Virus record (IMG/VR): IMGVR_UViG_3300037510_000159 | Span: 1-60,688 of that record | Direction: 5' to 3' (one strand) | DNA length: 60,688 nt | From: a virus | Lineage: Duplodnaviria > Caudoviricetes | Part shown: positions 15,339 to 60,688 of the stretch, piece after piece | Numbering within the stretch: position 1 is the stretch's first letter | Layout: the number at the start of each line of letters is the position of its first letter | Notes under the pieces: generated by a model | Database searches by the model: none | What the model saw: only the letters and a program-made list of their open reading frames with translations | What the model was told of the DNA's origin: nothing | Program-made: the position numbers and the translations under genes

Positions 15339-15587
15339 GTGGCCGAGCTACACGGGGGCCCGCACTACTACGTCGTGCTGTACGACCGGCGCACGGATCG
15401 CTGGTGTCGAATGATCGAGGTGCGCCCGCGCCTGCGAGATCAGGTGATCGAGGCGCTCGGCATCGAGCCGCTGGATTATGGAGAGATGGCGTTAGGCCCC
15501 GAGCAGCTCGGGACGCTCGCCGAGATCATGGATTTCACGCCCGACCTCGAACGCTTCGCCTACACTTTCGAGACGGTGCCGGGATGA
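15339..15587 (+). CDS. Hypothetical moron protein
   Basis: GTG start after GGAG; divergent from late genes; 82 aa. Confidence 0.6.
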   Translation: MAELHGGPHYYVVLYDRRTDRWCRMIEVRPRLRDQVIEALGIEPLDYGEMALGPEQLGTLAEIMDFTPDLERFAYTFETVPG

Positions 15588-17661: not shown

Positions 17662-17941
17662 CAGGAATGTTATCGCGCGGCTCTTTATCCGTGCTTCTGC
17701 CGCTCACACGGCAGCTCAGACTATATCAGCACCTCATTGCCGATCCTGGCAGTGAGGGCCGGGCGCTCGTGGGCCGATTATTCTTTCGTCACGGCCTAGT
17801 CGTTGGACCTTCCGCATCCCTGGCGCTTGCGCGTTACATATGCGGCTTGGCTGCTGATTGCCCTCGGCATTACCCGGTGGGGTTTCCCAGCAATTCACCC
17901 GGTTATTCGACAGGCGTCGCCGCCTGAAGGGCCAATGGTTT
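17662..17941 (-). mobile_element. Group I intron 2 (280 nt, no ORF)
   Basis: Exon ends in U, intron ends in G; P AATTGCTGGGAAA, Q AATCAGCAG, R CAACGACTA, S GATATAGTCT; ACCAT can pair with 3' exon ATGGT (P10). Confidence 0.9.
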
Positions 17942-18674
17942 AGCCTTTCTCGCTATCTCCAGTCACCGCCAGGTCGATGGTCTTCAACGGCCGCAGTGAA
18001 GAGAGGGCGAGCAGGGACGTGTCGAGAAGGTGAACTTCCCGGTCACGTTGGAAGCGGTTGGCGACGACTTTGTGCGTACCGAAATCCGAGCGATAGATCT
18101 CGATGTTGGTCATCAGACGTGCGTCGGAAGTGTCTTGCACCCTTTGCACGTTGCCGGTGAATTTACTGATATTCACCTTGTTGCTGGGACCGCACATGAT
18201 CAGGTCGATCTCGCCGCCCTGCGTCCACGCCGCCTGTATCTGCCCCGTCACCAGGGCCTCGGTCAGCGCACGCTGCGTGCCATCCTGAACTGCAGCGGCA
18301 GCGCCGCCATTGGCTCCGGTGGCGCCGCGTGACGTGTTGGTCGCGTACCATTGAATAAGCGACCGCAGCACGCGGGGGGTTGTGCTGTTACCAGCATTCG
18401 GCACAACATTGTTGTTGTGGATCAGCACGAACTCCATGTCCCTGCGGATCTCTTTGTTTCTTTTTGTAAGCTGGTAAACGATCTCGCGGCGGCGCCCGGC
18501 AGTATTAACTGCATTTTGCGTGCCCGAGATCACACAGTTTTTCGAGGAAATCTGGCAGCGATTGCCAAGCCTCGTCGTCGGCGTCACGGTCTGGAAGAAC
18601 CCGGCCGTGCCGCTGTCGTCACCTTCAAGCTGCGCGTTTGGACCCGCAGCAGCAAGTTGATCGCTCTGCCACTC
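17942..18674 (-). CDS. Major capsid protein exon 2
   Basis: EWQSDQL..NAQLEGDD..RLGNRCQI..SGTQ..KEIRRDME..YRSDFG..NRF..LAVTGDSEK, an SU10-type (DUF5309) capsid. Confidence 0.9.
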
Positions 18675-18972
18675 CAAGGGAGCTGTTACTTCGGCGCCGC
18701 GATTAAGCGCCTCTGACCATCATAAACGATGGCGGCCCGTCATTTCTGCGGGCTCTCCGGCTCTCACCGGAGGTCGGGCTCTATCATCATCCCCCGCCGA
18801 GCGGAGGCGTCCGACATATAGTCTCTGAGGGTCCGGCTAATGTACCCAGCCGTCTTCCCTGCTGATTGCCCATTGTAACATCCGGCCGATTGTCACTGCT
18901 TTCGCGAGTACGGACGGCTTTAGGGGTTTCCAGCAAATAGTCGGATTTTACATGCACAAGTGGACTTTATTT
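18675..18972 (-). mobile_element. Group I intron 1 (298 nt, no ORF)
   Basis: CAU|AAAU 5' site with P1 partner GTGCATG; P TTGCTGGAAA, Q AATCAGCAGG, R TCAGAGACTA; terminal G before GAG TGG; CCACT can form P10. Confidence 0.9.
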
Positions 18973-19116
18973 ATGCATGACAGCGGTAGCTTTGTTCTTG
19001 CTGATCGCGTCCTGAAAGGGGGTATCTACAGGACTTATAAGGTAAATTTGATCAGCCAGGTCTTCCCTGTTCCCGACGGCAGAGAAGGTAAGAAACGCGT
19101 TTTGTTGGATAGCCAT
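18973..19116 (-). CDS. Major capsid protein exon 1 (spliced product 315 aa)
   Basis: MAIQQNAFLTFSAVGNREDLADQIYLISPVDTPF..KATAVMH joins EWQ in frame. Confidence 0.9.
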
Positions 19117-31631: not shown

Positions 31632-31831
31632 CGCCCGTACACCGAGCGCCTGACGATCTGGATGGCGTGGTTGCCGAGGGTCACGGTGCGCGTCTCGCCG
31701 GCCGCGTCGGCCCACCTGACCTCGCCGGTCGCATCGTCGGCCAGCGTCAGCTTGCCCTTGCCCTCGACAGAGGCGAAGCTGTCCAGCCGCACCGCGCTGT
31801 AGTTGCGCGCCGCCTCGCCATCGACGCGCAT
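31628..31831 (-). CDS. Hypothetical protein
   Basis: AGGAGG RBS; 67 aa; TTGA overlap with dcm. Confidence 0.65.
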   Translation of the reverse strand: MRVDGEAARNYSAVRLDSFASVEGKGKLTLADDATGEVRWADAAGETRTVTLGNHAIQIVRRSVYGR

Positions 31832-33044: not shown

Positions 33045-33230
33045 TTATGCCGATTTCATATCGGGCTTGTGCAGGCGAGCCCGCAGCTCGACGACCTCGA
33101 GCTCGAGGCGCTTCACGTCGAGCCGGAGCTGGTCGATCGCCGCGGACATCTGCCGGATATGCTCGTGCATGCCCTGGTTGCCGTTGACATTGGCGTACAG
33201 CCGCTCAAGCGGCATATCGGCATCAGGCAC
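33045..33230 (-). CDS. Small coiled-coil protein
   Basis: 61 aa, coupled to terL stop. Confidence 0.5.
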   Translation of the reverse strand: MPDADMPLERLYANVNGNQGMHEHIRQMSAAIDQLRLDVKRLELEVVELRARLHKPDMKSA

Positions 33231-43005: not shown

Positions 43006-43169
43006 TGTCCGCCCTCGCCGCTCAGCGGCAGCGGGTGCCGCCGGTTGGCATCACGATAGGCCCGCACCCGCGCCTGCTCGGCCATCTCGCGACGCCGGAT
43101 CGCCAGCCACAGGCGCCAGTTCCCGGCGTAGTCCAGCTCCTCCCAATCCTCGGGCAGGTCGTCGTTCAT
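43002..43169 (-). CDS. Hypothetical protein
   Basis: GGAGG RBS; ATGA overlap. Confidence 0.5.
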   Translation of the reverse strand: MNDDLPEDWEELDYAGNWRLWLAIRRREMAEQARVRAYRDANRRHPLPLSGEGGQ

Positions 43170-43603
43170 AGCGCTGCCTCCGGCAGCGGTCGCATCTCGC
43201 GCGGCGGCAGAAACGCCACCCGCTCGTGCCTGGTGCAGTAGGGCCGGTCGAGGCCGGCGGTGCGCGCGGCACAAAACCCGAAATCGGCCTCACCGGGATC
43301 GCCGTGCGGCCAGACGCAATTTCCGCTGGGTGGAAAAACATTGAGTTTCACACCCACGCGCCGCGGCCTCCTGCGGCCGCCCGTCGGCTCGCGCGCCAGC
43401 TTCAGCCGGGTGCGATGCACCTGGCCCATCACGGCGTTCCGCGACACGCCCAGCTCGATCGCGATGGCGTTCGCAGTCAGCCCCGCGTCGACCAGCTCGA
43501 CGAGCCGGTCGCGATTGGCCGCCCACCACGCCTTGCGCTCGGTGAGCCAAGGACCGCGGGCGGGGCCGAAGCGGCCTGCTATGTCGCCCTTCGTCTCAGC
43601 CAC
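43166..43603 (-). CDS. gcrA: GcrA cell-cycle regulator homolog
   Basis: GLTA.AIA.ELGVSRNAVMGQVHR HTH and C.WP.GDP....F.FC......PYC..H C-terminus. Confidence 0.85.
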   Translation of the reverse strand: MAETKGDIAGRFGPARGPWLTERKAWWAANRDRLVELVDAGLTANAIAIELGVSRNAVMGQVHRTRLKLAREPTGGRRRPRRVGVKLNVFPPSGNCVWPHGDPGEADFGFCAARTAGLDRPYCTRHERVAFLPPREMRPLPEAAL

Positions 43604-47792: not shown

Positions 47793-47932
47793 CGCACGCC
47801 CCCGAAGTCGAGCACGTCGAAGTCGGCCGCCTTACCGATGCGCCCCAGCGCCTCGAGCTCCTGCTGTGCGGCAGCCACAGGGCGAAGCGAGCTTCGCCCG
47901 ATCTGGTCCTTGAGGCGCAGCCGGGCGATCAT
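47789..47932 (-). CDS. Small hypothetical protein, 47 aa
   Basis: ATGA overlaps at both ends. Confidence 0.4.
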   Translation of the reverse strand: MIARLRLKDQIGRSSLRPVAAAQQELEALGRIGKAADFDVLDFGGVR

Positions 47933-48438
47933 ATCGTCCCGCCCTGGTGCCATTGGCGCTTTGCGGCGAGGTAAACTTCATGCGCTTCGTTTGCCGTAGC
48001 GAAATTGCCTAGATAAACCTGTCTGCCGCCGACCTTTATTCGGGCAGTGAATGTCCTAGCCTGGCATACTGGACTAACTCCGAGAAAGCCGCTTGCGTTA
48101 TTTCGTTGCGCGCGTTTTTGGTTTTGCTGATTTTCTATCTTGGTCGCTTCACGAAGGTTAGAGAAACGATTGTTTCTCCGATTGCCGTCTATGTGATCGA
48201 TATCCATAGACGGCCATTCTCCCCGGACGTAAAGGAAGGCGAGCCTATGCGCCAGGTACAGCTTGCCGTTGATCGCAAGCTGTATGTACCCATCCTTCCG
48301 CTTGCCGCCAGCGAGAGTTCCAGCCGCCCTGCCGCCAGCAGAAACCAATCGCCAAAACTCCCCCGTTTCCTCGTTGTATGAGTACAGTCGTTTAAGCTCG
48401 TGAGCTAATAGGCCGTTCGCGCGCGGCTCGGTGGACAT
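47929..48438 (-). CDS. HNH-AP2 homing endonuclease
   Basis: YLAHRLAF....WP..IDHIDGNRRNNRFSNLREAT plus SG.LGV..ARI...YLG.F.T..EA AP2 domain. Confidence 0.9.
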   Translation of the reverse strand: MSTEPRANGLLAHELKRLYSYNEETGEFWRLVSAGGRAAGTLAGGKRKDGYIQLAINGKLYLAHRLAFLYVRGEWPSMDIDHIDGNRRNNRFSNLREATKIENQQNQKRAQRNNASGFLGVSPVCQARTFTARIKVGGRQVYLGNFATANEAHEVYLAAKRQWHQGGTI

Positions 48439-48447
48439 CGGCCGCCC

Positions 48448-48705
48448 CTACTCGAATGCGAAGTGCGGCTTCTCCGGCTTCCGGCGCAACAGGCGCCGCT
48501 CGGCCTCGTCGAGGCCCCGGCGCAGCGCGGCAATGACCTGCCTCGCCTCCTCCTCGCTATACTCGTAGTTGGCGGCCGACAGGTTGCCGAGACTGGCAAG
48601 CCCGGCGAGCACCCGCTGCGTTCGCTTCGCGGCCAGGCGGCGAAACTTGTCGTTGCGGTTTTCCCCAAGAGGCGGCTCCGGCCGTATACGCACGGGATCA
48701 GACAT
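48448..48705 (-). CDS. Conserved small protein
   Basis: KFRRLA.KRT..VL..L..LGNLS..NYEYS; GGGAGG RBS. Confidence 0.7.
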   Translation of the reverse strand: MSDPVRIRPEPPLGENRNDKFRRLAAKRTQRVLAGLASLGNLSAANYEYSEEEARQVIAALRRGLDEAERRLLRRKPEKPHFAFE

Positions 48706-48888
48706 TGCGGGCCTCCCCAGCTCAGCGACTCGCGCTATGCGCGCGGCGGTTATTGCGGATAATCCATGATGGCGAAAAAACGCCGCGGCCCTCGACGGAA
48801 ACTGAGGATGTTGCGTTACTCGACATATCGGCGGCACACTGATGGCGTGGCGCGACAGTCGGTTGGATGCCATGCCCATGAGCCAACG

Positions 48889-49137
48889 TCATGACGGCGG
48901 CTCCGTGCAGGGATACGGCGCCAGCTTCGGAGGTGCATGGGCATGCTCCGGCGGCGACCAGATATCGGGGCGTATATGATCCAGGGGAATCCCAAGGAGC
49001 CCGCTGATGCGGAGGGCTGCATAAATCGGGACACGGCGGCGCCGCCAGCCGCAGACCGTGCTGTGGCTGACGCCGACCAGTCTGGCGAGCTTGACAGTAC
49101 CACCGGCGCGGAAGACGAGATCTTCGACGCTAAGCAT
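48889..49137 (-). CDS. Cro/YdaS-like HTH regulator
   Basis: AGG..KLARLVGVSHSTV.GW..VP...I....GIP...IRPDIW; divergent from repressor. Confidence 0.8.
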   Translation of the reverse strand: MLSVEDLVFRAGGTVKLARLVGVSHSTVCGWRRRRVPIYAALRISGLLGIPLDHIRPDIWSPPEHAHAPPKLAPYPCTEPPS

Positions 49138-49161
49138 GGGTTAAGTGTCGAAGATCTCGAC
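49114..49161. promoter_or_regulatory. Two 15-bp operator-like palindromes (GTCGA-N5-TCGAC)
   Basis: GACGAGATCTTCGAC 49114-49128 and GTCGAAGATCTCGAC 49147-49161 at the cro/cI junction; related GTCGATAATGTCAAC at 50261-50275. Confidence 0.55.
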
Positions 49162-49236
49162 GCCACAGGTCAAGCGGGAAGCGACGCGGCATCGGAAAAA
49201 GATCCGCCGCCCTTGCCGGCCGACGCCACGCTTGGC

Positions 49237-49719
49237 ATGCGGCTCAGGTGGCTGCGCCAGTGCCGCGGGCAATACGTCGCCGAGACGGCGGGAGATCTGG
49301 GGCTCAGCCGGACGACCGTGTCGACATGGGAGCGCGACGGCTCGGAGCCGAACGTCGAGTGGCTGGTCACTCTGGCGCGGTATTATGGTGTGTCGGTCGA
49401 TTGGCTGACGTCCGGCGAAGGCGTGCCGGCCCTGCCGCCGCAGACGCCCGACGAGGCCGAGATGCTGTCGCTGTTCCGTCGCGTCAGGCGGCGCAACGCC
49501 CGGCAGGAGCTACTCTCGCGGGGCAAGGATCTGGCGCACACGATCGAGGCGCGCGGCGATTGGGTCACCCGTCCCTGGACGATCCTGCAGGCGGGCAGTA
49601 AAGGTAAGCGCAGAGAAACTGCCGCAGCCAACAGGTCTTCAGATCCAAACGGAGACTTATCCGCTCCCGCCGGACCTGCAGCGCCGCTCCGGAAACGCGG
49701 TCGGCCTCGCCGCAATTAA
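49237..49719 (+). CDS. CI-like XRE repressor (start uncertain)
   Basis: RLRWLR...A.DLGLSRTTVSTWERD.SEP....L..LA.YYGVSVDWL.SGEG. Confidence 0.75.
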   Translation: MRLRWLRQCRGQYVAETAGDLGLSRTTVSTWERDGSEPNVEWLVTLARYYGVSVDWLTSGEGVPALPPQTPDEAEMLSLFRRVRRRNARQELLSRGKDLAHTIEARGDWVTRPWTILQAGSKGKRRETAAANRSSDPNGDLSAPAGPAAPLRKRGRPRRN

Positions 49720-49834
49720 ATGTATCCTAAATACACAACTGGCGAGAAATAAATTAATTTATCATAAATACGACATAGAAACTTCCGTGTGCCGGCTGCT
49801 TGTGTAAAATTACCTCTCGAGGTCCGACGCATGG

Positions 49835-50176
49835 GTGAGAGTTGCTGTGATGCCGCCAAGCCACGATGCCTTCCGTGCGGAGGCGCTCTTGCTTCAAACC
49901 CCCGCTTCGGCAGAAGACCCTCCTCCGGCAGACCTGCACTTTTTGATCTGCCGGAAAGCGTGCAGCCCCGGCGATCTGGCGGATTATGCCCACGAGCTCG
50001 ATCCGGCCGTGCTGTGGAAAATCGAAGACAATCTCGCCGAGCGTCTGCGCCGGACACCGCAAACCGAGCGGCACGGTGCTACCTACCTCCGCATGCGTGT
50101 CCTGAAGCATGTCATCTCGGCCCGCCTCACATTCGAGGTGCTGGGCGTGCCCCAGGACGAGGACGCCGTCCTGTAA
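49835..50176 (+). CDS. Hypothetical protein
   Basis: 113 aa ORF with coding-like composition. Confidence 0.5.
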   Translation: MRVAVMPPSHDAFRAEALLLQTPASAEDPPPADLHFLICRKACSPGDLADYAHELDPAVLWKIEDNLAERLRRTPQTERHGATYLRMRVLKHVISARLTFEVLGVPQDEDAVL

Positions 50177-50313
50177 TTCAAAGCCGCGCCGGCCCGGATC
50201 AATACAGTTTTAATAAAATAGATTGCGACGGAGTTATCGTCGTTTTTCTTGATGAAAAGCGTCGATAATGTCAACATGCTCTCCGGCGCCACACCGGCGC
50301 CAGGAGAGATGCG

Positions 50314-50622
50314 ATGTCCCAACCCCAAACGAAATTGCCACTGGACAGGATCCTGGCCGGCGGGTCGATCGAAGGTTACGACCTGCTGCCCGCTTTCGGC
50401 CACGCCATCTGCAAGGCCGAGGAATGGGTCGGAAACGACTTCACACTCGAATGCACCATGCACGGCTGGGCTGTGCGCTACCGCACCGGCACCAGCTATC
50501 GGCACACGCTGCTCGACCACGGCCGCCTGTACTTCCGTTGCCCCGAGGACGCCATCGCCGCGCTCGCCGCGCTGGCCGACACAAACCGCGCCAAGGCCGC
50601 CGCCGAGGAGCTCGCGCTATGA
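50314..50622 (+). CDS. Hypothetical early protein
   Basis: AGGAG RBS. Confidence 0.65.
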   Translation: MSQPQTKLPLDRILAGGSIEGYDLLPAFGHAICKAEEWVGNDFTLECTMHGWAVRYRTGTSYRHTLLDHGRLYFRCPEDAIAALAALADTNRAKAAAEELAL

Positions 50623-50792
50623 GGCGGCCTTGGACAGAGGCAGACGACGACGTGCTCGAGGAGCTGCTCACCGAGCACGATTACCTGTCCTGCAAGCTCG
50701 GCAAGCTCGAGCGGCGGATCCACACGCTCAGGGAGCTGCGCGGCAATCCCGAGCTGCGGGAGCTCGACTCCGATTACTGGGCAGGGAGGTAG
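50619..50792 (+). CDS. Small hypothetical protein
   Basis: ATGA overlap; MRRPWTEADDD. Confidence 0.55.
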   Translation: MRRPWTEADDDVLEELLTEHDYLSCKLGKLERRIHTLRELRGNPELRELDSDYWAGR

Positions 50793-50798
50793 AGCGCC

Positions 50799-51746
50799 AT
50801 GAGCGCCATAACCATCACCAGCACGGAGCAATGGCTCGCCCTGCGCCAGCAGCACATCTGCGGATCTGAAATAGCGCCCATGCTCGGCGAGAGCGAGCGC
50901 ATGACCCCCTTCGAGCTCTTCTTATTGAAGAGCGGGATGCTCGAGGCGCCTGACTACTCCGACAACGAGTACGTCTTCTGGGGCCAATGCCTGGAGCCCG
51001 CAATCGCGCGCGGCGTCGAGCTCAAAACCGGGTGGAAAGTCGAGAAGGCCAATGTCTTCTATTCCGACCTTCCCGATTGCCCGCTTGGCGGCACGCCGGA
51101 TTACTTCATCGAGGATCCGGAGCGCGGCCTCGGCGTGCTCGAGATCAAAAATGTTGAGAGCTTTATGTGGAAACGCTGGGGCAACGAAATGCCCCTATCG
51201 TTCCAGCTCCAGCCGCAGATTTACTGCGGCCTGTCAGGCTGCTCATGGGCGCTGACAGCGGCGCTGATTGGTGGAAACCGCCTCGAGCTCGTCATGCACG
51301 AGGCCCGGCCGCGCACGATGGAAATCGTTCGCGAGCGCGTGTCGGCCTTCTGGCAGGCGATCGTCGACAACAAGCCCCCTGCCGCCGACTACACCCGCGA
51401 CGCCGACGCCATCGCGCGGCTCCACCGCTCGGTCGAGGCCGGCAAGGTGATCGACATGAGCGAGTCAAACCGCCTGCCGGAGCTGTGCGCCGAGTACCAG
51501 CGTGCAGCGGCCGCCAAGGGCGTCGAGGACAAGGCCCGCAAGGCCGCCCAGGCCGAGATCCTGACCATCATCGGAGACGCCGAGACCGTCATCTGCGGCG
51601 ACCTCACGATCAAGGCCGCAGAGGTCAGAGGCGTGCCGGACAGGATCATCAGCCAGGCCGATGTCGGCACAATCATCAAGGGCCGCTCGGGTTATCGCGG
51701 GCTTCACGTGAGCAAACGCAAGACAAAGGAACAGGTAGCAGCATGA
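50799..51746 (+). CDS. YqaJ/lambda-exonuclease family recombination nuclease
   Basis: WLALR...I.GSE...G..LEP...GGTPD...LEIK...Q.Q.Y. Confidence 0.9.
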   Translation: MSAITITSTEQWLALRQQHICGSEIAPMLGESERMTPFELFLLKSGMLEAPDYSDNEYVFWGQCLEPAIARGVELKTGWKVEKANVFYSDLPDCPLGGTPDYFIEDPERGLGVLEIKNVESFMWKRWGNEMPLSFQLQPQIYCGLSGCSWALTAALIGGNRLELVMHEARPRTMEIVRERVSAFWQAIVDNKPPAADYTRDADAIARLHRSVEAGKVIDMSESNRLPELCAEYQRAAAAKGVEDKARKAAQAEILTIIGDAETVICGDLTIKAAEVRGVPDRIISQADVGTIIKGRSGYRGLHVSKRKTKEQVAA

Positions 51747-52993
51747 GCGACGTCGCCGTAATCGAAAACCCGTTCGGCATGACCCGGGCTCAGCCGCAGG
51801 CCGGCGCCCTGGTGTCCGTCGAGCAGCAGCGCGCCATCGCCGAGGTCCAGGCGCGGATGATAATCGCCCGCGCAAACCCGCGCGACCCGATGCACTGCAT
51901 GGACCTGATCCTGCGCGATTGCACCCGCCCCGCCCTGGCCGAGGCCGCCCTCTACCAGTTTGCCAGAGGCGGCTCCTCGATCAGCGGACCCTCGATCCGC
52001 CTGATGGAGGCCGTCGCACAGCGCTGGGGTAATATCGCCAGCGGCATCAAGGAGATCAGCCGACACAACGGCTCCAGCGAGTGCGTTGCCTACGCCTGGG
52101 ATTTGGAGTCGGGCTATTACGATGAGAAGCAGTTTCAGGTCCGGCACTGGCGCGACACGCGCGGCGGCGGCCAGATGCTCAAGGACGAGCGGGATATTTA
52201 TGAGTTAATCGCGAATATGGGCCAGCGCCGCAAACGCGCATGCCTGCAGGCCGTGATCCCCGGCGAGGTCGTCGAGGCGGCCGCAGCTCAGTGCGAGCAG
52301 ACCTTGAAGGCCAGCGCGGACACCTCGCCCGAGGCCATGAAGAAGCTGTTCGATGCGTTTAAACAGTTTGGCGTTTCGCGCGAGCAGATCGAGGCCCGCT
52401 GCCAATGCCGGGCCGAGGCCATCCGCCCGGCGCAGATCGTCCAGCTCCGCAAAATCTACGCGAGCCTCAAGGACGAGATGAGCTCGCCCGCCGATTGGTT
52501 TCAGCCGGCCCCAACGCCGGCCAAGGCCAACGGCGGCGGAAACGGCGGCGCCACTGGGCTCGACCGCTTCGAGCAGATCCACAGCCAAGCCGCGGAGCCC
52601 AGGTCGGAGCAGGGCTCCGACCGACCCCATGACCCGGAGACGGGCGAGATCATCGAACAGGCGCCTCCCAACGCGCCTGCCCTCGCCGGCAACCCCCCTG
52701 CCGCAGCGCCAGGAACGGCCCGAAGCGCTGCGACGGTGCCGGCGAGGGAACCCAAACCGCGCGCCAGGGACGAAGCCTGGTGGAATGCCGAGCGTGTCAC
52801 GGTCGCCGGCAAGACCGGCACGGAGTTCCAGGCAGGGATGCACGAGCGCACCCGCGAAGCCCGCAACTGGGCGGAGATCGAGCGCCTCAGAGACGACAAC
52901 GGCGATCGGATCGATACCCTCGACAAGGCCACGAAGGAGGCCGTGCTGAGCGAGCTTGCAAACCGGGAGAAAGAGCTGCGCGCCAGCGCCTGA
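51743..52993 (+). CDS. Putative ssDNA-annealing recombinase
   Basis: RAIAEVQA....A..NPRD..Y...RGG..I.GPSIRL.E...WGN..AWDLE; adjacent to YqaJ. Confidence 0.75.
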   Translation: MSDVAVIENPFGMTRAQPQAGALVSVEQQRAIAEVQARMIIARANPRDPMHCMDLILRDCTRPALAEAALYQFARGGSSISGPSIRLMEAVAQRWGNIASGIKEISRHNGSSECVAYAWDLESGYYDEKQFQVRHWRDTRGGGQMLKDERDIYELIANMGQRRKRACLQAVIPGEVVEAAAAQCEQTLKASADTSPEAMKKLFDAFKQFGVSREQIEARCQCRAEAIRPAQIVQLRKIYASLKDEMSSPADWFQPAPTPAKANGGGNGGATGLDRFEQIHSQAAEPRSEQGSDRPHDPETGEIIEQAPPNAPALAGNPPAAAPGTARSAATVPAREPKPRARDEAWWNAERVTVAGKTGTEFQAGMHERTREARNWAEIERLRDDNGDRIDTLDKATKEAVLSELANREKELRASA

Positions 52994-53064
52994 TATAATC
53001 GGCAGCGAGGCAGCGTGTCAGCGCCGCCTCACCGCCTGACCAAGCCAGCGCAGGAGCCGCTAGG

Positions 53065-53850
53065 ATGGCTGACCCCACTGTACCGACCGACGATGCCGCC
53101 GAGAAGCGGCGTGCGGCCAAGCGCGAATACGATCGGCTATACTATATAAAAAACCGAGAACGTATTCTTATTGCCAATAAACAATACAGCAAAAACAACC
53201 CTGAGAAAAATCGGATACGTAGTAGAAGATACAGAGACAAAAATAAAGACCTGATACGCGCTCGCGTTCGCTCTCACTATCAAGCAAACCGCGAGGATAT
53301 CCTAAACCAGAAAAAATTAGAAAGGGCAAAAGACCCCGAAAAGTTTCGTGCTCAAACTCGTCGCTACCAAAACGAGAACCGCGAAAAATTCCGCGCGATC
53401 GTGCGCGGGTCCATGCGCCGATGGCGTGCCCGTGACGGCAACTATGATAAGGAGCTTGCCGATTTTCGGCGTCGATACGCCGAGAACCCAGAGAAATATC
53501 GAGCTTACGTAGACGCGTGGCAGCAGGCAAACCCAGGCCGGAAGCGGGCACACGGGATAAATCGCCTACATAGAATAGAACAACGAACGCCCGCCTGGGT
53601 TGATTGGGACGAAATAAACACAGTTTATGCAAAGTGCCCCACTGATATGCACGTCGATCATATCGTGCCGATCGTCGGGCGTACCATCGAGGGATATAAG
53701 GTCAGTGGGCTGCATGTGCCCTGGAACCTGCAGTACTTAACGCCTGACGAAAACATGAAGAAGCACAACCGAATGCGAGCAGAAGACCACGCCCTTGCCG
53801 GCGAACCTGTTTTTGCCGTTCGGCGGCAGCTAAGTCTCTTTGATGATTGA
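53065..53850 (+). CDS. HNH endonuclease (paralog of 1064-1687)
   Basis: HVDHIVP...SGLHVPWNLQYLTPDENMKKHN; lower GC; own TATAAT at 52994. Confidence 0.9.
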   Translation: MADPTVPTDDAAEKRRAAKREYDRLYYIKNRERILIANKQYSKNNPEKNRIRSRRYRDKNKDLIRARVRSHYQANREDILNQKKLERAKDPEKFRAQTRRYQNENREKFRAIVRGSMRRWRARDGNYDKELADFRRRYAENPEKYRAYVDAWQQANPGRKRAHGINRLHRIEQRTPAWVDWDEINTVYAKCPTDMHVDHIVPIVGRTIEGYKVSGLHVPWNLQYLTPDENMKKHNRMRAEDHALAGEPVFAVRRQLSLFDD

Positions 53851-53910
53851 CAAAAAGTGCGATTGTCGCACGTGAAAACCTACGGTTGATTTCCGTAGAT
53901 CCCAGACACT

Positions 53911-53950
53911 AAAAAGCGCCCCCGCCGGCCAGGCAGGGGCGCTCTCTTTT
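53911..53950. terminator. Bidirectional terminator between convergent arms
   Basis: AAAAAGCGCCCC...GGGGCGCTCTCTTTT. Confidence 0.65.
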
Positions 53951-53956
53951 GGGACG

Positions 53957-54274
53957 CTATTTCGCGGGCGGCGCTGGGAGCCTCGCTCCTACGGCACTGC
54001 CGATCGCGCTGCCGGCGATCCCGGCCAGGGCCGCGATGGCGGCCGTCCGGTCAATCTGCGATGCCATGCCGAGCACGCCTATGAGGGGCACCGACAGCAG
54101 CAACACGATAAGCCGGGCGATCGTTTGGCCCACCAGGGCGGCCTGCAGGGCGCGCGAGGCCAGCTCGGGATCGCGCCTGCCTGCCAGCGCCACCATGCCA
54201 GCCACGAGCAGAAACAGGGTCACGAGGACAAACGACGCCGGCCAGGCGAATGCGGCCAGCGTGCCCTCGCTCAG
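53957..54274 (-). CDS. Multi-TM membrane protein (holin-like); start uncertain
   Basis: Three hydrophobic segments; last gene of late arm. Confidence 0.5.
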   Translation of the reverse strand: MSEGTLAAFAWPASFVLVTLFLLVAGMVALAGRRDPELASRALQAALVGQTIARLIVLLLSVPLIGVLGMASQIDRTAAIAALAGIAGSAIGSAVGARLPAPPAK

Positions 54275-55602
54275 TGTCGGCGGCTCCGGGCGGGGCTCGG
54301 TTGCGGCTCGTCTTTGCCGCCTTCCAGCGCCGTGACCTTGGCCGACAGCACTTCCACCTTTGCTATAAGCTCCTGCACGCCGGCCCACAGGACGGCAGTT
54401 AATTCATGGTAGGCGAGAGCCTGCTGTCCCGGTTTCTCGCCGGCAATCCAGCCGCCGAAATCCTTCCCCATCACGTTCTGAACTTGCGGCGCAAGAAATC
54501 CCCAATGTGTCTTTTCGGTTTCTGTGCCTGCTTTCCACTTGTAGGTTTTTGGCGACAGGGCCGCCACTGCCGCAAGAGCATTTGCGGGAGCGTCCTTGAT
54601 GTCGGTTTTCAGCGCCGGGTCGGATGCGTTAACGAAAGCGTAGCTCGAAACTTGATTAAAACTCCGCCCAAGCCCGCCCAATCCATAAGTGTTATCTGTG
54701 GAAGGGAACGCAGACTGATAAATATAAAAGCCGCCGTTAGCTTTGAGGTGCATCTGTCCCGCAACGCCGCCGGGAACGGCGTTTCCGTATACAACGATAT
54801 TCGGTCCAATCGCAGCGTCGTTGAACCCGAACGTGCCGCCATCCGTTGTTATGTCGGTGCCGATATAGTAATTCGGCGAATATGCAGTAACCGCCATAAG
54901 AAACCGCGACGGATCGACTTGCATCAACGTATTGCCGCTGCGGTCAACGAACAGGTGGGTATTTTGTTGATAGACGTTAGAAGACAATCCGGGACTGCCG
55001 CCGAGATAGAACGTAGGAACGCCACTATTGTCGTAAACCTTGTTATATCCGGCGTTTAGTGCATCGTTGACCGCGTGGACAACACCATTCAGCCGCAGTG
55101 CATTGCTGCCTGCGATGAGCAAATTGCCGTTAATCGTAAGATCACCGCCGAGCGAACCGCCCGAGAGGGGAAGGTAAGACCCCACGGCTGCTTGTACGAA
55201 CTGGCACGTTGCAAGCTGCGTCGTGTTGGTCAGTGGCCCCGCAGTGGGAGCGGCAGGAAGCCCGGTGAACGTAGGCGAGGCGAGCGGAGCCGCCCCGAGG
55301 CCCGCCAGCAGCGCGGCGTTGTTGGCGGCAGAGATGCCCGTTCCGCCGTTGGAGAGCGCAACCGGCGTCGTCAGGCTAAGCGTCACGTCGCCCGTCGGCC
55401 CGCCGCCGGTCAGCCCGGCGCCCGCCGTGACCGAGGTGATGTCGCCGCCACCACCCACCAAGGCCAGCAGGTTGGCAACGCTGTACCGCTTGGTATCATA
55501 TCCGGTCGGCGACGTCGCGTTGGCGACGGCCATCTCGATCAGCGACGTGCCGGCGATCGGCAACGTCCCTGCCGCCATGTCGGATATTCGTATTCGCGCC
55601 AT
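54271..55602 (-). CDS. Tail fibre with C-terminal peptidase S74 chaperone
   Basis: APLASPTFTG.P.APT..TQLAT fibre motif; SDPALKTDI..WGFLAPQV..L..GVQEL chaperone. Confidence 0.85.
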   Translation of the reverse strand: MARIRISDMAAGTLPIAGTSLIEMAVANATSPTGYDTKRYSVANLLALVGGGGDITSVTAGAGLTGGGPTGDVTLSLTTPVALSNGGTGISAANNAALLAGLGAAPLASPTFTGLPAAPTAGPLTNTTQLATCQFVQAAVGSYLPLSGGSLGGDLTINGNLLIAGSNALRLNGVVHAVNDALNAGYNKVYDNSGVPTFYLGGSPGLSSNVYQQNTHLFVDRSGNTLMQVDPSRFLMAVTAYSPNYYIGTDITTDGGTFGFNDAAIGPNIVVYGNAVPGGVAGQMHLKANGGFYIYQSAFPSTDNTYGLGGLGRSFNQVSSYAFVNASDPALKTDIKDAPANALAAVAALSPKTYKWKAGTETEKTHWGFLAPQVQNVMGKDFGGWIAGEKPGQQALAYHELTAVLWAGVQELIAKVEVLSAKVTALEGGKDEPQPSPARSRRH

Positions 55603-55648
55603 CAGATCCGGCTCCTATAGCGTTAGCTTAAATCCGAAGCGTCTCTGC

Positions 55649-55677
55649 TTGACCCGCCCGCGCCCGCTTTCCATGAT
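55649..55677 (+). promoter_or_regulatory. Sigma70-like promoter, antisense to tail genes
   Basis: TTGACC-N17-CATGAT. Confidence 0.55.
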
Positions 55678-55683
55678 CGCCCT

Positions 55684-55908
55684 GTTGGGTACCGCCAGGA
55701 GGGCGGGAACGAGGCGAAAGCCTGAAAGCGAGTGGAGACTGTGTGAGACCTGCGGGATTGAGGTTTCTGCTACGACGCAGAGTAAAATCCCGATAGGGAG
55801 CAATCCCGTGGGCAGTAGTCGTTGAAGCTACGAATGGTGTTGAGCCGCAAGGCGAAGTGCTAACTCCGAGTCCGAAATCCGGATGCTCGCCACACCTCGG
55901 TGGCTCCC
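55684..55908 (+). ncRNA. Putative structured non-coding RNA, unknown family
   Basis: Nested long-range stems and three GNRA tetraloop hairpins downstream of a promoter; no credible ORF. Confidence 0.6.
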
Positions 55909-56294
55909 TATGCTACGACGCGCAGCGGCACGCGCCGCGCTGCCGGATGCACAATCGCTGGGTGGAGAGTGCCCCAGCCGACCAAGATCGTCTCAATAGC
56001 TTGAAACGCGTCGTAGACTTTCAGCTCGTGCCGGTAATTGCCGGCCAAAGCCCTGGTGTCGTCAGGGTCGAGGTGGATCACGATCTGGCCGCCGACGACG
56101 TCCAGCATCTCGATCTGGGTCGGGTCGTCGCTGGTCTTGACGACCGTCGCCGAGACGGCGTTGACGTCGCCCAGGGTCCAGATCAACGTCGCGTCAGTCA
56201 GATCGAGGGGCAGCCCGTCATAGCCCAGCACGGCAATGAACAGGTCGATGTCGTCGCCCGCCCAGCCCTGGAAGTCTTGCCCCGTCTCTGCCAT
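55908..56294 (-). CDS. BppU-like/Ig-like tail-associated protein
   Basis: GDD..L...V...G.PLDLT.A...I.L.P.DT..L.G.Y.HEL. Confidence 0.65.
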   Translation of the reverse strand: MAETGQDFQGWAGDDIDLFIAVLGYDGLPLDLTDATLIWTLGDVNAVSATVVKTSDDPTQIEMLDVVGGQIVIHLDPDDTRALAGNYRHELKVYDAFQAIETILVGWGTLHPAIVHPAARRVPLRVVA

Positions 56295-57736
56295 CAGGCT
56301 GCCCTCGTTTTCCGGAAATCCGATCGTGCGATGAGCTGCGGCCGCGCCCGGCTGGCGGTGAGGTAGTGCCGCTCGCCGACATGCGTGCGCAGGGTCGCGG
56401 TCAGGACGGCGACGGTGGCGCCGCCGATCAGCTGGTGCTGCAGGATGCGGTCGTCGGGCTCGCCAATGGCATCAAGCCCGGGCCTCCACCATTGCTCGGT
56501 AACCCGCGGCAGATAGTCCTGTGTCGGATCCGGGTGAGGCGTCGAGGGCGAGCGCTCCGTGACGCGGACGTACAGCCCTTCGACATAGGCGTGGACCTCG
56601 AGCCGCCCGGTAAACGCCGCGACGGTCGCCGGCGCCAAGGTTGCATTGACCGTGGCCGTCGTCTCGATCGGCAGCGTCTGCTCGATGTACCGGGGCGCGC
56701 TCGTCTCGGTCGCGCGCTCCTGGTTGTCCTCCGTGTACCGCTCGCTGTACGCATCATCGTCGAGGGAGCCGCGCGCCACCAGCGCGGCCGGCGCAAGCGT
56801 CTGCGAGAGGCTGCTCCTGATCGGCACACGGGCCGATGAGGTGAGCGTTGCGGGAGCCAGGGTCCGCGAGAGGCTGGCGTGCAATGGCGCCGGCGCCGAG
56901 GCCGCAGGCCGCAGGATCTCCCGCACCAGGCCCTGCACCAGCAGCCGATTTGACCCGACGCCGGGTGCTCCAATTACCTCGCGCACCAAGCCCTGGACTT
57001 GGAGCACGCCCGTAGATGTGCCGATTGTTTCGCGTGCAAGCCCTTGTGCGAGTAACGTGGAGAAGTGGTCGGTGTCAGGGAATGCGTCGGTTGGAGGTGT
57101 AAACGCACCCGCGTACCGGGCAACACCTTTGGTGATCCGCAGATCGTCTATCTGCCCTAGTGAGCCTGCATTGGTGTTCCCGTTGTTGCCGATTGACAGT
57201 GAGCGAGTGCTGGCAAAGAGTGTCGCGGCTACGGTAGCCGACCCGATTACCGCGCCCCCGGCATAGACCCGCAACACATTACTTGCGTCGCGGTCAACCG
57301 CGATATGCACCCAGGTATTGAGGGTTGGCGTATAACTCCCGCTGACCGACGGGGTATCGGTCCCGGTTGTGCTGTAATTAAATATTAGGTTGCTGCCGTT
57401 GAACCCGAACCACCAGCCTAGATTTGTAGTGGCAGCCCATTGTCCTACCAGACTTCGCAAGCCGGTATTGACGGATGGCCTGACCCATGCCTCAACCGTG
57501 AACTGCCCCGCGCCAAAATTGAAATCTGTAACGACTGGAGTGGTTACTTGGGCTGAAGCATTGGTTACGTCTAACGATCCGGCTCCCCACTTCGACTGCG
57601 ATCTGGATACTTTTGCAGTCGCTACGCCCGACAGGGCGTGGGCAGACAGCGAGCTGTCCAGGGGAGTCGTGGACCCGTCCGCGTCATCAAAATGGACGAG
57701 CAGGCCGACGCTTGAGAAGTTTAGGTCGATCGCCAT
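56294..57736 (-). CDS. LamG/concanavalin A-like domain tail protein
   Basis: LLVHFD..DGST, FTVEAWV, W.HIAV.R, GQIDDLRITKGVARY..FTPPT. Confidence 0.85.
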   Translation of the reverse strand: MAIDLNFSSVGLLVHFDDADGSTTPLDSSLSAHALSGVATAKVSRSQSKWGAGSLDVTNASAQVTTPVVTDFNFGAGQFTVEAWVRPSVNTGLRSLVGQWAATTNLGWWFGFNGSNLIFNYSTTGTDTPSVSGSYTPTLNTWVHIAVDRDASNVLRVYAGGAVIGSATVAATLFASTRSLSIGNNGNTNAGSLGQIDDLRITKGVARYAGAFTPPTDAFPDTDHFSTLLAQGLARETIGTSTGVLQVQGLVREVIGAPGVGSNRLLVQGLVREILRPAASAPAPLHASLSRTLAPATLTSSARVPIRSSLSQTLAPAALVARGSLDDDAYSERYTEDNQERATETSAPRYIEQTLPIETTATVNATLAPATVAAFTGRLEVHAYVEGLYVRVTERSPSTPHPDPTQDYLPRVTEQWWRPGLDAIGEPDDRILQHQLIGGATVAVLTATLRTHVGERHYLTASRARPQLIARSDFRKTRAA

Positions 57737-59256
57737 TACGAGGCCACGCTAACGCCGCCCTTGGCGGCATTAGCACCCGATAGTGTCCACGCCACCCCCG
57801 TGGCCGGGTCCGTGTCAAAATAGCTGGCTTGCCACTGCGATGTAGTAGCGAGTCCCTGACTTGGTGACGAGCCGGTTGTATCAGTCGCCGCGCTTTTGAC
57901 GTTGAAGCTCGCTGTCCTGGCCCCGGCATCGGACTTAGACACAAAGCCTTTGACGGCCATGCCAAATATCGTTGACGGGTTTGTGGAGAGCGCCGGAAAA
58001 GTGAATAAGTCCTCCTGGCCCACCGTTGAGCTGTGGGTTTGCGAAGCCGCCGTACCGAGCGGTGGGTTGCGTCCGACTGCCGCCCAATTTGCTGCCGAGC
58101 CGGTGCAGTTGCCCCATATCAACCAAGTCGGCTGCCCCGTCGTCATGCCCGATAGCGGCCCAGCCGGTGCTCCACTCGTGTAGGTGTTCGCTTTCTTTTG
58201 GCCTAAATTCGTAGTCGCATCGTATTGCTGCAAGACGACGGACGTGTCGGTAATAAGCCCCATCCAGTACGACTGCCCGGCCGTAACCGTCTGCGGCGTG
58301 ACCAGCGTTCCGGTCAACGTTGAGCCGCTGGTGCAGCCGACAACCTCATTACCGCTCGACAAAAGCGATCCGATCGAGCCGCTGCTGTCGGCGTACAAAA
58401 CAGCCTTGGATTTCACCGTGGCACTGGTCGCTCCCGGCACCACCGAGATCGAGTTGAGGGTGCGGGTGATGTCGGCCGTAAAGCGCACCAGATAGATGAA
58501 ATTCGCACCCGGCGCGTTAGTGGCTGCGTTGGCTCGCGCTACGCCGTTCGGTGAAATCCCCGCAGGCAGGACGATGTCGCCGTCGTTCGCGAACTGGGTC
58601 TGGTTGTCGCCATTCACGAACTGAGTTTCAATGACCGGGTTGGAGGTCAACAGTGCTGAATTGTACGCCGGCTGCGTCGGATCGAGGACGATCAAATCGT
58701 CAAGCGTGAAGAAGTTGCCGGTGCCGCTGATCGAGGCCGCGTTTATTATGGTGACGTTTGCTTGGGCGTTGTTCGTGTTTCCGGTGCCGCTATATAGCAG
58801 TGTACCGTCCAAATTCACGGTGTAAAGACCAACACCGGCCCCGCCAAGTGTAACATCCCAACTTAACACATGCGTCGAGTTCGCGGCAATAGACCCGCCG
58901 CCGGTAATAATCGCGCCGCCGGCATTGCCGGTGCGTATATTGATGACACCGCTTAACTCGATCGTGATTGAAAAAGCTGCCGTGCCGAGATTACTTTGAA
59001 ATACGAAGTTGTTCCCCCCGCCGGCCTGCGGGACCGAAAACCGAACGGAGCCGGCGATCCGGGTCAATGATACGCCAAGGTTTTTGGTGATCGTGGCGGC
59101 TGTGCCGATCCTGTATGCGTAACCCGTCGAACTGAGGCCGGCGACAAGCGTGCCTGAGCCGCCAAGCTGCGAGGTCCATTGGGTCAGGATATTTGGCGTG
59201 GCACCCGGCGGGCCGTACACGTCGAAGCCGTCGGTGAAAATTAAGGGAGATGGCAT
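57736..59256 (-). CDS. Beta-rich virion/tail protein
   Basis: IFTDGFD.Y N-terminus, DDL.V.D, and DP.TG.AWT C-terminal motifs. Confidence 0.7.
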   Translation of the reverse strand: MPSPLIFTDGFDVYGPPGATPNILTQWTSQLGGSGTLVAGLSSTGYAYRIGTAATITKNLGVSLTRIAGSVRFSVPQAGGGNNFVFQSNLGTAAFSITIELSGVINIRTGNAGGAIITGGGSIAANSTHVLSWDVTLGGAGVGLYTVNLDGTLLYSGTGNTNNAQANVTIINAASISGTGNFFTLDDLIVLDPTQPAYNSALLTSNPVIETQFVNGDNQTQFANDGDIVLPAGISPNGVARANAATNAPGANFIYLVRFTADITRTLNSISVVPGATSATVKSKAVLYADSSGSIGSLLSSGNEVVGCTSGSTLTGTLVTPQTVTAGQSYWMGLITDTSVVLQQYDATTNLGQKKANTYTSGAPAGPLSGMTTGQPTWLIWGNCTGSAANWAAVGRNPPLGTAASQTHSSTVGQEDLFTFPALSTNPSTIFGMAVKGFVSKSDAGARTASFNVKSAATDTTGSSPSQGLATTSQWQASYFDTDPATGVAWTLSGANAAKGGVSVAS

Positions 59257-59267
59257 ATGTTGACCCC

Positions 59268-59504
59268 TTATGCCTCATGCCCGGCCTGGATCGCGCCCGC
59301 CCCATTCGGCCGCGGTGCAGCAGCCGCCGAGCCGGCACCGCCGGCCCGCTCTTGGTGCCCATGGGCAGCCTGCTCGGTGATCGCCCCGATCAGCGGCGCC
59401 ACGACCCGGTACGGCCCCTCTGCGAGCACGCCGAGCAGCACATTCCATTGCTGCGCCTGCAGCACGATTGTGATCGGCGCGGTTGCTTCGATCGGCTCTT
59501 GCAT
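59268..59504 (-). CDS. Small tail-fibre-associated protein
   Basis: L.AQQWNVLL..L.E.PYRVVAPLI; TGATG overlap with tail fibre. Confidence 0.6.
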   Translation of the reverse strand: MQEPIEATAPITIVLQAQQWNVLLGVLAEGPYRVVAPLIGAITEQAAHGHQERAGGAGSAAAAPRPNGAGAIQAGHEA

Positions 59505-60688
59505 CACTTTTTGGTCTCCTTTGTGCGGGCCTCGACGGCCTCCAGGCGCTCCGCGATCTCTTTCAGGCTGTTGATCACGGCATAGACTAATTCGCCGGCG
59601 AACAGCACGCCGATATCTTTTGTTTCGCCGCCGAGAGTGAATTGTGTTTTGCCGCAAATCTCGGGGAGATGAGGCAACACTTCATCGACCATAAGCCCGC
59701 GACGAGGCGCCGATGGCTCGTCCTCCGTTGCGTATGGAGTGCCGGCAACATAACGATAGGTAACCGGCCGCAAATTTCTGATGGCTTCAAGGCCCCGAGT
59801 ATAGGGCTCGACGTCCTGCTTGATGGCCGGGTCCGATGCCGATCCCCAATCGCCTCCCCAGCAATAACAAACGCCATTTGCGTCAGCCCAGAACACCGCT
59901 TTGTTGGCGCTCCGATCAACAATCGCATAACTATCGGTATAAACAAAGCTCGCCAGGACATCGACCTCCCATACCCGCCTGCCGTTATTGAGAGCGATGC
60001 CCGTGTCGCCAGCCCCGTCACGCTTATAGAAAACCGCCGCCGTCGTTCTTTCGCTTGTGTGATCGACTTCGATGTACGATCCGAAATAGCCGTACCCATT
60101 TGGCACATAGACATTGGCATTGCTTCTGAAATCGCCGACCGTCGTGTAGCCGGCGACGGTCGCCCCGCCGTAGATGTCCACCTGGCCGCCAAACCTGGCG
60201 AGCTGCCCGCTGCTTTGCAGCCACAGCGTGGTCACGCCTTCGATATGGCTGTTGCCGTCGTCGTAGATCGCCAGCGTGCTCGATTGCCCGGCACGCTGAA
60301 ACAATATCTGGTAGTTGATATTCAACGTGCTGCCGTAGTATCCGCCGCCGGCGACATCGAGAAAATCAAATATCTTGACCCGCCTGGGGCTCCCCCCGGC
60401 TCCGACAATCGCCAATGCCGCAGTGTCGTAATTGCGATAACCAATCGAGCCGGCGGCGCTGTCGTCTCCGGCATTCTGTTTGAAGCGCCACACGCGCCCG
60501 CTGAAGAAGCCCCGGTCTGTCGAGGGGCCGGCATCGCCCGACGAATAGGTGTAGAAGTTTTGGTAAGCGATGACGTCGGTCTGCGCAAGAAACTGCCCGC
60601 CGGCAATGACCGGAAGCCCGTTGCTGTTTAGCCAGAGCTGGGTAGTGCTCTCGATATGGCTGTTGCCGTCGTCGTAAAGGCGCAGGTT
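59504..60688 (-). CDS. Tail fibre protein, 3' part with peptidase S74 chaperone
   Basis: Frame open from 60688 (NLRLYDDGNSHIE...); SDPAIKQDV..GL.AI..LRPV.YRY..GLM..E..INSLKE. Confidence 0.85.
   Translation of the reverse strand, partial: NLRLYDDGNSHIESTTQLWLNSNGLPVIAGGQFLAQTDVIAYQNFYTYSSGDAGPSTDRGFFSGRVWRFKQNAGDDSAAGSIGYRNYDTAALAIVGAGGSPRRVKIFDFLDVAGGGYYGSTLNINYQILFQRAGQSSTLAIYDDGNSHIEGVTTLWLQSSGQLARFGGQVDIYGGATVAGYTTVGDFRSNANVYVPNGYGYFGSYIEVDHTSERTTAAVFYKRDGAGDTGIALNNGRRVWEVDVLASFVYTDSYAIVDRSANKAVFWADANGVCYCWGGDWGSASDPAIKQDVEPYTRGLEAIRNLRPVTYRYVAGTPYATEDEPSAPRRGLMVDEVLPHLPEICGKTQFTLGGETKDIGVLFAGELVYAVINSLKEIAERLEAVEARTKETKK
60349..60686. repeat. Imperfect internal repeat of tail fibre gene, copy B
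   Basis: Aligns to 1-338; a further partial YDDGNSHIE copy lies about 411 bp away at about 60241. Confidence 0.9.

Follow-up and report, generated by a model that had tools for sequence, protein, structure and literature searches.

A probable structured RNA gene opposite the tail genes

The DNA of a virus of the Caudoviricetes (Duplodnaviria), IMG/VR record IMGVR_UViG_3300037510_000159, was analysed over its whole length of 60,688 bases, which is referred to as the window. The plus strand of the window probably carries, opposite the late tail genes, a stand-alone gene for a structured non-coding RNA (ncRNA) of about 187 nt. The gene is located in a gap between two minus-strand tail genes, follows a putative sigma-70-type promoter, and is conserved together with this promoter in two further soil phages. 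An initial annotation of the DNA had proposed a promoter-driven, multi-junction plus-strand RNA antisense to the tail module within a gap of about 300 bp. The gap is real and is 305 nt long (55603-55907), and the core of the proposal holds, with 13 compensatory pairs among three homologous sequences. All statistics on structure and conservation given below rest on three distinct DNA sequences, which are the window copy, locus L022 (record G001) and locus L025 (record G002).

The consensus fold of the three sequences contains 62 base pairs, and 178 of the 183 pair cells (97.3%) are standard pairs. Changes on both sides of the pair are detected at 13 of the 62 pairs, as compared with 5.9 ± 1.7 when the columns are shuffled, and none of 500 shuffles reaches this number. 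Six controls, in which the structure was slid, give 33-50% pairing and zero to two compensatory pairs. The compensatory pairs are distributed over P2 (one), P3 (two), the long arm (three and two), the inner hairpin (two) and P7 (two and one), and the junction nucleotides are invariant (Table 1). Thus, the search for homologues and the covariation analysis, which had been suggested as a check on the initial proposal, recovered two further phages and argue for the fold.

The pair cells include 41 G·U and no A·C combinations, and the pairing of 97.3% is obtained when the alignment is read on the plus strand, as compared with 74.9% on the minus strand. The RNA is therefore assigned to the plus strand, in agreement with the earlier argument from G-U pairs. 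The compensatory pairs and the absence of a conserved reading frame from the three sequences identify the element as a putative structured ncRNA gene.

The window sequence alone is only suggestive, and the homologues are decisive. The segment 55688-55908 folds with a minimum free energy (MFE) of -85.0 kcal/mol on the plus strand (z -2.09, 6 of 200 shuffles as good) and -72.5 kcal/mol on the minus strand (z -1.54, 14 of 200 as good). Overall, the z-scores of the single-sequence folds range from -2.0 to -2.1 on the plus strand and from -1.3 to -1.5 on the minus strand. The expectation that the plus strand folds better than shuffled controls is borne out for most shuffles, but only modestly, because 4-7 of 200 are as good. 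The trimmed window RNA alone gives the same architecture at -67 kcal/mol (z -2.1), as does the G001 copy alone (z -1.4). The G002 copy gives this architecture in the centroid, but not in the MFE structure (z -1.9).

Not all details of the initial annotation are retained. The helices CCTGC/GTGGG, TCTGC/GCAGA, AGGC-GAAA-GCCT, GGGA-GCAA-TCCC and GGGATT/AATCCC are kept in the homologues. In contrast, the 3' partners of the proposed closing stem CCGCC..GAGG/CCTCGGTGG and of GCGAGT/GCTCGC fall in 55885-55904, within a vestigial fibre start that lies outside the conserved element. The CCGCC segment pairs locally with GGCGG instead, with a compensatory change in L025, and the CTCC assigned to GGAG/CTCC is placed by the consensus in the 3' strand of P1. 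Three of the proposed long-range helices are artefacts, because the gene start is duplicated at this site. Likewise, the RNA had been drawn with a length of about 220 nt, reaching 55908, while the conserved domain is about 187 nt long (55684-55870). Three GNRA hairpins had been reported for the plus strand only; all three are present on that strand and none on the other, but the loop of GCC-GCAA-GGC is not GNRA in two homologues.

Three or more GNRA hairpins per 221 nt are found at 28 of 6048 sampled positions on the two strands of the window. Besides the gap and a group I intron, such runs fall in stretches with long open reading frames (ORFs), such as the YqaJ-like gene near 51100. GNRA enrichment was rejected as decisive evidence, because counts in the long-ORF stretches are equal.

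Two-state tip of the long arm

The tip of the long arm can be paired in two mutually exclusive ways. In one fold, segment a, GGGAUU (55754-55759), pairs with segment d, AAUCCC (55802-55807), and extends the CCUGC/GUGGG helix, while segment b (55786-55791) pairs with segment c (55796-55799). In the alternative fold, which is the one proposed in the initial annotation, segment a pairs with segment b, AAUCCC, and segment c, GGGA, pairs with segment d across a GCAA loop. The hairpin UCUGC/GCAGA (55766-55781) is located inside the tip. Pairing is complete (100%) for both folds in each of the three sequences. The last base of segment a is changed from U to C in the G001 copy, and the matching change from A to G is observed at the start of both b and d. 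The loop of the c:d hairpin is GNRA in all three sequences (GCAA, GAGA and GCAA). These observations, made on three sequences, are a hint that the bistability of the tip may be selected.

Putative promoter

The initial annotation had pointed to TTGACC-N17-CATGAT on the plus strand. This sequence is present ahead of the RNA, and its -35 region and key -10 positions are invariant, while its spacer is not. CTTGAC (55648-55653) is invariant in all three sequences. The spacer is always 17 nt long, with only 3 of its 17 columns invariant. The -10 hexamers are CATGAT, GACTGT and GATAGT, in which A2 (A55673) and T6 (T55677) do not vary. The end of the -10 hexamer is separated from P1 by 6-7 nt in each sequence, and the predicted transcription start is the first base of P1. 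The spacing, within the usual 16-18 nt, and the conservation of the hexamers against a variable spacer mark this site as a putative sigma-70-type promoter. In a promoter scan it is one of two promoter-like sites in 54000-58000 of the window, where 0.9 is expected, and the homologous site of L025 is called as well.

With nine matches in the window against 6.4 expected, the TTGACCCGCC word is not enriched. A second such word (15272-15340, +) lies upstream of a Shine-Dalgarno (SD) sequence and the GTG of an 82-aa ORF on the plus strand (15339-15587), and may be another host-type promoter in a region that is mostly minus-strand.

Homologues and the conserved cassette

The homologues were recovered by way of spurious proteins. 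When the minus-strand open frame of the gap was translated and compared with a protein collection, a spurious 82-aa ORF (P0001) was found with 72% identity over 39 residues. Upstream of this match, P0001 is still similar to the window, but in another reading frame, and such a frame shift within one similarity is read as the mark of conserved non-coding DNA. P0001 used as a query against IMG/VR gave four loci, which represent two phages. L022, L023 and L024 are identical over 8198 bases and all belong to G001 (a 43-kb record, 96% complete), and L025 belongs to G002 (a 20.8-kb record). The spurious ORF of G001, run with HMMER against 1.84 billion representative proteins, gave three clusters, P0001, P0002 and P0003, whose sequences track the window in shifting frames. 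Judged from these frames, at least three more members of the cassette exist beyond the three DNA sequences. P0002, the most divergent of these homologues, begins with an apparent real protein N-terminus, WLPIATAPKDGT..., followed by an RNA-derived part; a genuine gene seems to abut the element in its source.

Other searches gave nothing further. Two pattern scans were made from conserved blocks; the first returned the same four contigs, and the second returned these and three chance matches (L033-L035) in a low-GC coding gene. No match was obtained in DNA searches of GenBank phages with the window, L022 and L025 versions, in a DNA search of PLSDB plasmids, or in a tblastn search of GenBank phages with P0001. 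A 22-mer from the tip has no match in IMG/VR, and the matches of a 20-mer in GTDB genomes (three loci) and of an 18-mer in IMG/VR (11 loci) are chance matches of the word only. Among the neighbouring proteins, the 128-aa protein matches two distant IMG/VR loci, the examined one of which (L002) has no gap, the 480-aa protein gives two partial matches in IMG/VR, and the fibre N-terminus is found in none of 51 candidates there.

The block shared by the three phages extends from GGCTCC to TAACTCCG and is 259 nt long in the window (55610-55868), 264 nt in G001 and 266 nt in G002. The similarity ends at both borders, and none is detected further out. GGCTCC is invariant and is the reverse complement of the SD sequence of the next minus-strand gene, and the spacer that follows is homologous in all three sequences. 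Because the cassette carries its own SD sequence at its left end, the downstream gene stays translatable after insertion.

The element is located after the head genes (major head protein, phrog_212) and before a 70-aa ORF, a 627-aa ORF and a tail protein in G001. In G002 it has an endolysin-like protein of 232 aa on one side and, on the other, a 99-aa ORF and then a virion structural protein. The insertion sites are non-homologous, all lie in structural modules, and the RNA is antisense to the flanking genes in all three phages, which have few proteins in common. A covariance model built from the alignment detects exactly one copy in each of G000, G001 and G002 (202-226 bits) and none in G003, the fourth of the four records searched.

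The RNA contains indels of 2, 2 and 1 nt, so that no reading frame is shared on either strand. A small protein gene was rejected, because the frame is not kept: matching P0001 and P0003 to the window takes two or three different frames. An AUG...UAA micro-ORF of 9-10 codons (55831-55860, +) is located inside P7 and is in frame in all three homologues, with a 3-nt indel as the only one there. It was not accepted as a gene, because it has no visible SD sequence and only Met and one Lys are common to the three; it is regarded as a by-product of the constraints on the RNA. The cassette does not have the properties of a miniature inverted-repeat transposable element or an insertion sequence derivative either, because 55610-55868 has no terminal inverted repeat, one copy is present per record, and the gene-start duplication of about 44 nt is not a short target-site duplication.

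Insertion and duplicated fibre start

The closest relatives, L006 and L007, came up when metagenomes were scanned with the 128-aa protein. Their identity to the query is 81%, and 4 of 1065 bases distinguish the two loci. Both lack the gap: immediately after the 128-aa gene stops come GGAGCC, four bases and the start codon ATG of a fibre gene. Because this site is empty, the window carries an insertion, which comprises 291 extra bases (55579-55869): one base, the 259-nt block, a 7-nt spacer and a second copy of eight fibre codons. In addition, the empty site and the different neighbours in the other phages indicate that the cassette is an independently moving unit, so that it appears to be a horizontally moving ncRNA 'moron', a movable phage RNA gene.

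In a local alignment, the ancestral junction of L006 persists at 55870-55913. The old start remains as the relic codons GTG GCG AGC ATC CGG ATT TCG GAC (55870-55893, -), which differ from L006 at 3 of 24 bases. Of the 24 bases in the first eight codons of the functional gene, 5 differ from L006, each of them a synonymous change at a third position. Recoding of the functional start was rejected, because these differences are no more than the gene-wide divergence (31 of 150 bases). The similarity between the window and L006 stops after the relic and restarts one codon past the eighth codon of the functional fibre gene; about 95 N-terminal residues of the fibre are conserved, and the remainder is divergent. 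At the right junction, a CGGA microhomology is common to old codons 7-8 and the end of the block. Recombination with a donor in which the cassette stood ahead of a related fibre start is the probable origin of the insertion, with the old start left behind as a relic. The relic (55828-55893, -) retains its SD sequence and GTG, and its 21-codon frame, VASIRISDSELALRLAAQHHS, runs into the RNA gene on the opposite strand before a stop codon.

Mode of action and alternative explanations

The pattern of conservation suggests that the host-type sigma-70 promoter would start transcription at the first base of P1. Host RNA polymerase would make the RNA independently of late transcription, and the RNA would be trimmed back to P1 and persist as a compact particle. 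It would act in trans through its three-dimensional fold, by binding a host or phage factor, and not merely as an antisense strand. The product is quite possibly, though still tentatively, a stable, trimmed, trans-acting RNA that is made by host RNA polymerase independently of late transcription and acts on a factor through its fold.

Several observations weigh against the main explanation as a whole, a stand-alone gene for a structured RNA. The covariation statistics are formally weak, because only three distinct sequences are available, and P1 and the 3-bp P4 never vary and thus contribute no compensatory pair. The folding z-scores of the three sequences are modest (-2.1, -1.4 and -1.9). The 3' CUCC has two possible alternative partners, the AGGAG loop of P2 and a GGAGA of the long arm, and the MFE structure of L025 uses GGAGA. 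The promoter of L022 (GACTGT) falls below the scan threshold, so that the scan is positive in two of three sequences, and an intrinsic terminator is not found after the RNA in any of the three. No obvious partner gene, such as one for a reverse transcriptase or an RNA-guided nuclease, is conserved across the three phages. Finally, the antisense orientation in all three phages may be inherited through the SD sequence of the cassette and not independently selected.

The main rival is that the cassette is a cis-antisense regulator or insulator, from whose promoter host RNA polymerase would fire into the 3' end of the upstream late gene, so that collision, or duplex formation followed by RNase III cleavage, delays or uncouples the late genes, and whose fold serves mainly to stabilise the transcript. 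The RNA matches the intergenic stretch of the late polycistronic mRNA with full complementarity, its orientation is opposite to the flanking structural genes in all three phages, and transcripts would enter the upstream gene without a terminator. Antisense RNAs with defined starts opposite structural genes of lytic Pseudomonas phages are also described in the part of PMC10914365 drawn on here. However, this role needs no five-way junction, invariant junction bases, GNRA loops or G·U-specific pairs. The upstream genes differ among the phages, and conservation goes precisely as far as the end of P1, leaving out the antisense part; the cis-antisense explanation is therefore considered unlikely. 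It is improbable that the RNA is a riboswitch-like sensor, in which the P1-closed junction and the bistable tip would bind a small molecule or ion and switch antisense transcription. A junction closed by the 5' and 3' ends, invariant junction nucleotides and the preservation of both tip folds would fit such a sensor, but the bistability rests on three sequences and no Rfam riboswitch family matches. A riboswitch proper was rejected, because no plus-strand gene lies downstream, and conservation ends at the 3' strand of P1, with no conserved expression platform beyond it.

The remaining two explanations are slightly less probable still than the riboswitch-like sensor. The block could be a minus-strand element, namely a 5' leader, a processing site or a small protein gene for the downstream gene, with incidental plus-strand features. 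The SD sequence of the next minus-strand gene does lie inside the conserved block, and the minus strand has a 62-codon ORF (55615-55803) and a 3-base GC periodicity. On this strand, however, 41 of the 183 pair cells become A·C mismatches, the fold is weaker, and the frame is lost between homologues (indels of 2, 2 and 1 nt, and the frame change of P0001 and P0003), so that the minus-strand interpretation seems largely refuted by these comparisons and is highly improbable. The block could also be a functionless recombination scar, left over from a swap of tail fibres and conserved merely because it is recent. The duplicated gene start and junction microhomology at the site and the lower GC content of the distal fibre agree with such an origin, but the block is common to phages that share few genes and have different neighbours, and its substitutions are concentrated as compensatory pairs; the probability of a mere scar is thus very small.

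Relation to known RNAs

No Rfam family matches the window copy or its homologues, which agrees with the initial impression of an unrecognised family. Against Rfam 15, the gap gives no match at the gathering thresholds. A search of 55500-56050 on both strands at E <= 10 gives only two long non-coding RNA models with E values of 3.4 and 9.2, far below the 50-bit gathering score. The wider range 48000-60688, searched at E <= 1, likewise has no match within the gap, and the homologue sequences L037 and L038 give no match at E <= 1. A group I intron (RF00028) was rejected, because no match is obtained in 55500-56050 on either strand even at E <= 10, and the RNA is on the strand opposite to the genes.

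ROOL, GOLLD and similar Rfam motifs are orphan structured RNAs of phages and prophages, and a cryo-electron microscopy preprint deals with ROOL and GOLLD. The window RNA resembles them in being phage-borne, elaborately folded, non-coding, of no known function and recognised by covariation. It differs from them in being far smaller (187 nt), in having no Rfam match and a conserved putative sigma-70-type promoter, and in being antisense inside late operons. The pRNA of phage phi29 is phage-encoded, is about 170 nt long, has its own promoter and acts in trans through its fold. The window RNA has a similar size, a putative promoter of its own and a proposed trans action through its fold, but it has no Rfam match and comes from a phage of a different lineage, with an SU10-type capsid and portal. 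The lysine riboswitch has a five-way junction architecture, and the likeness extends to a P1-closed multi-helix junction, conserved junction bases and alternative pairings. Unlike it, the window RNA has no regulated co-oriented gene, conserved expression platform or Rfam match.

Promoter-early stem-loop (PeSL) cassettes of T4-type phages consist, in the part of PMC2839356 used here, of a sigma-70-like promoter and a terminator stem-loop, are present many times per genome and shuffle through recombination between copies. As described there, they are, like the window cassette, small non-coding units of promoter and RNA structure tied to insertion, deletion and replacement differences among related phages. 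A PeSL-type cassette was rejected, because the putative promoter of the window cassette is followed by no terminator-like site, the cassette is single-copy, and it encodes a five-helix junction with covariation. PAK_P3, LUZ19 and other lytic phages produce antisense RNAs with defined transcription starts opposite late or structural genes, according to the portion of PMC10914365 cited above. In that portion they are described as transcripts and not as conserved structured families, whereas the conservation of the window RNA ends with the folded domain and not with the antisense overlap.

Full-text literature searches on phage structured or antisense RNAs, judged by listings and abstracts, showed nothing like the RNA, although a motif without a name could escape such a search. 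The nearest groups are orphan phage-borne structured RNAs, PeSL cassettes and phage antisense RNAs, and the RNA appears to belong to none of them. It is best described as a new RNA family of a known kind, and the chance that its activity is truly new is modest.

Neighbouring genes and other features of the record

The coordinates of the RNA, the cassette and the adjoining genes are summarised in Table 1.

Table 1. Positions of the RNA gene, its cassette and the adjoining tail genes in the window
Feature	Coordinates	Strand	Description
Structured RNA	55684-55870	+	187 nt; P1-closed five-helix junction (RNAalifold, three sequences)
P1	55684-55690, 55863-55869	+	GUUGGGU with ACUCCGA
P2	55692-55706	+	CCGCC-AGGAG-GGCGG
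P3	55712-55723	+	GNRA-capped hairpin; loops GAAA, GCAA, GCAA (L025 counting an extra U·G pair)
Long irregular arm	55727-55829	+	
Bistable tip of long arm	55754-55807	+	
P7 arm	55835-55862	+	
Putative promoter	55649-55677	+	Sigma-70-type, TTGACC-N17-CATGAT; 9 of 12 consensus matches
Cassette left end	55610-55647		Complement of SD GGAGCC (55610-55615), then conserved spacer with AAATCCGAA (55630-55638)
Copy 1, vestigial fibre start	55870-55907	-	GTG and 7 codons (VASIRISD, 55870-55893), spacer, old SD GGGAGCC; abuts stop of 128-aa gene
Copy 2, start of functional fibre gene	55579-55602	-	First 8 codons (MARIRISD)
Tail fibre	54271-55602	-	443 aa; C-terminal Peptidase_S74 chaperone domain; downstream of cassette
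128-aa tail-module gene	55908-56294	-	Stop codon 55908-55910; upstream of insertion
Laminin_G_3 baseplate-like protein	56294-57736	-	480 aa; tail module
506-aa protein	57736-59256	-	Tail module

The record has a CheckV completeness of 71% and a G+C content of 64.7%. It encodes an SU10-type major capsid protein and portal, a small terminase, a DnaB-like helicase, a C5 methylase and a GcrA-like regulator. The public runs that contain the stretch are soil and rhizosphere metagenomes, and none of the 20 public runs listed is an RNA run. Four public DNA runs give low-depth pieces, which are identical to the gap wherever they overlap it, so that no natural variation is seen there. The GcrA-like gene (43166-43603, -) hints at an alphaproteobacterial host, given the known occurrence of GcrA; the GcrA Pfam model also matched an archaeal control genome. 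Together with the C5 cytosine methylase (29868-31715, -), this regulator may point to the host group and to control that is linked to methylation.

Two group I introns (RF00028) are detected at 17697-17951 (-) and 18755-19049 (-) with 70.6 and 64.3 bits. They flank an ORF (17940-18677) that matches positions 44-269 of the SU10 major capsid protein model, and the capsid gene appears to be split by two self-splicing introns. A 719-aa ORF (33230-35389, -) gives a sub-threshold match to an intein splicing domain, and ARAGORN calls an unusually long tRNA-Pro(CGG) of 93 nt (33792-33884, -) inside this ORF on the same strand; the intein or the tRNA call may be wrong, or the locus may be composite. 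Free-standing HNH or endonuclease VII-like genes are located at 53065-53850 (+) and 47929-48438 (-). The former is situated just past the 3' end of the fibre gene, where the G+C content is low (44-52%). The introns, the intein-like match and these endonuclease-like genes suggest that selfish elements have colonised the genome. The two ends of the record (1-338 and 60349-60686) are a near-repeat, with 301 of 338 bases identical, in fibre-like ORFs (2-874 and 59504-60688, -). This near-repeat represents paralogous fibre segments or a diverged terminal redundancy, and not an assembly overlap.

Implications

The recovery of the homologues indicates that translating 'empty' gaps and searching protein databases for the resulting spurious ORFs can detect RNA homologues that are missed by DNA word searches. 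To our knowledge, phages encode few structured RNAs whose fold is conserved, and for most of these no role is known. It is rather doubtful that a bistable, GNRA-braced five-way-junction RNA, carried between unrelated soil phages as a cassette of promoter and SD sequence, represents a new functional class, which could be a ribozyme, a switch triggered by a ligand or protein, or a decoy against a host defence or host factor. The anatomy of the RNA is unusually clear, with a putative promoter, a predicted start at the first base of P1, a P1 helix that seals both ends, two GNRA loops and a tip with two alternative pairings. The RNA is thus a tractable candidate in the search for new RNA activities in conflicts between phage and host or in late-gene control.

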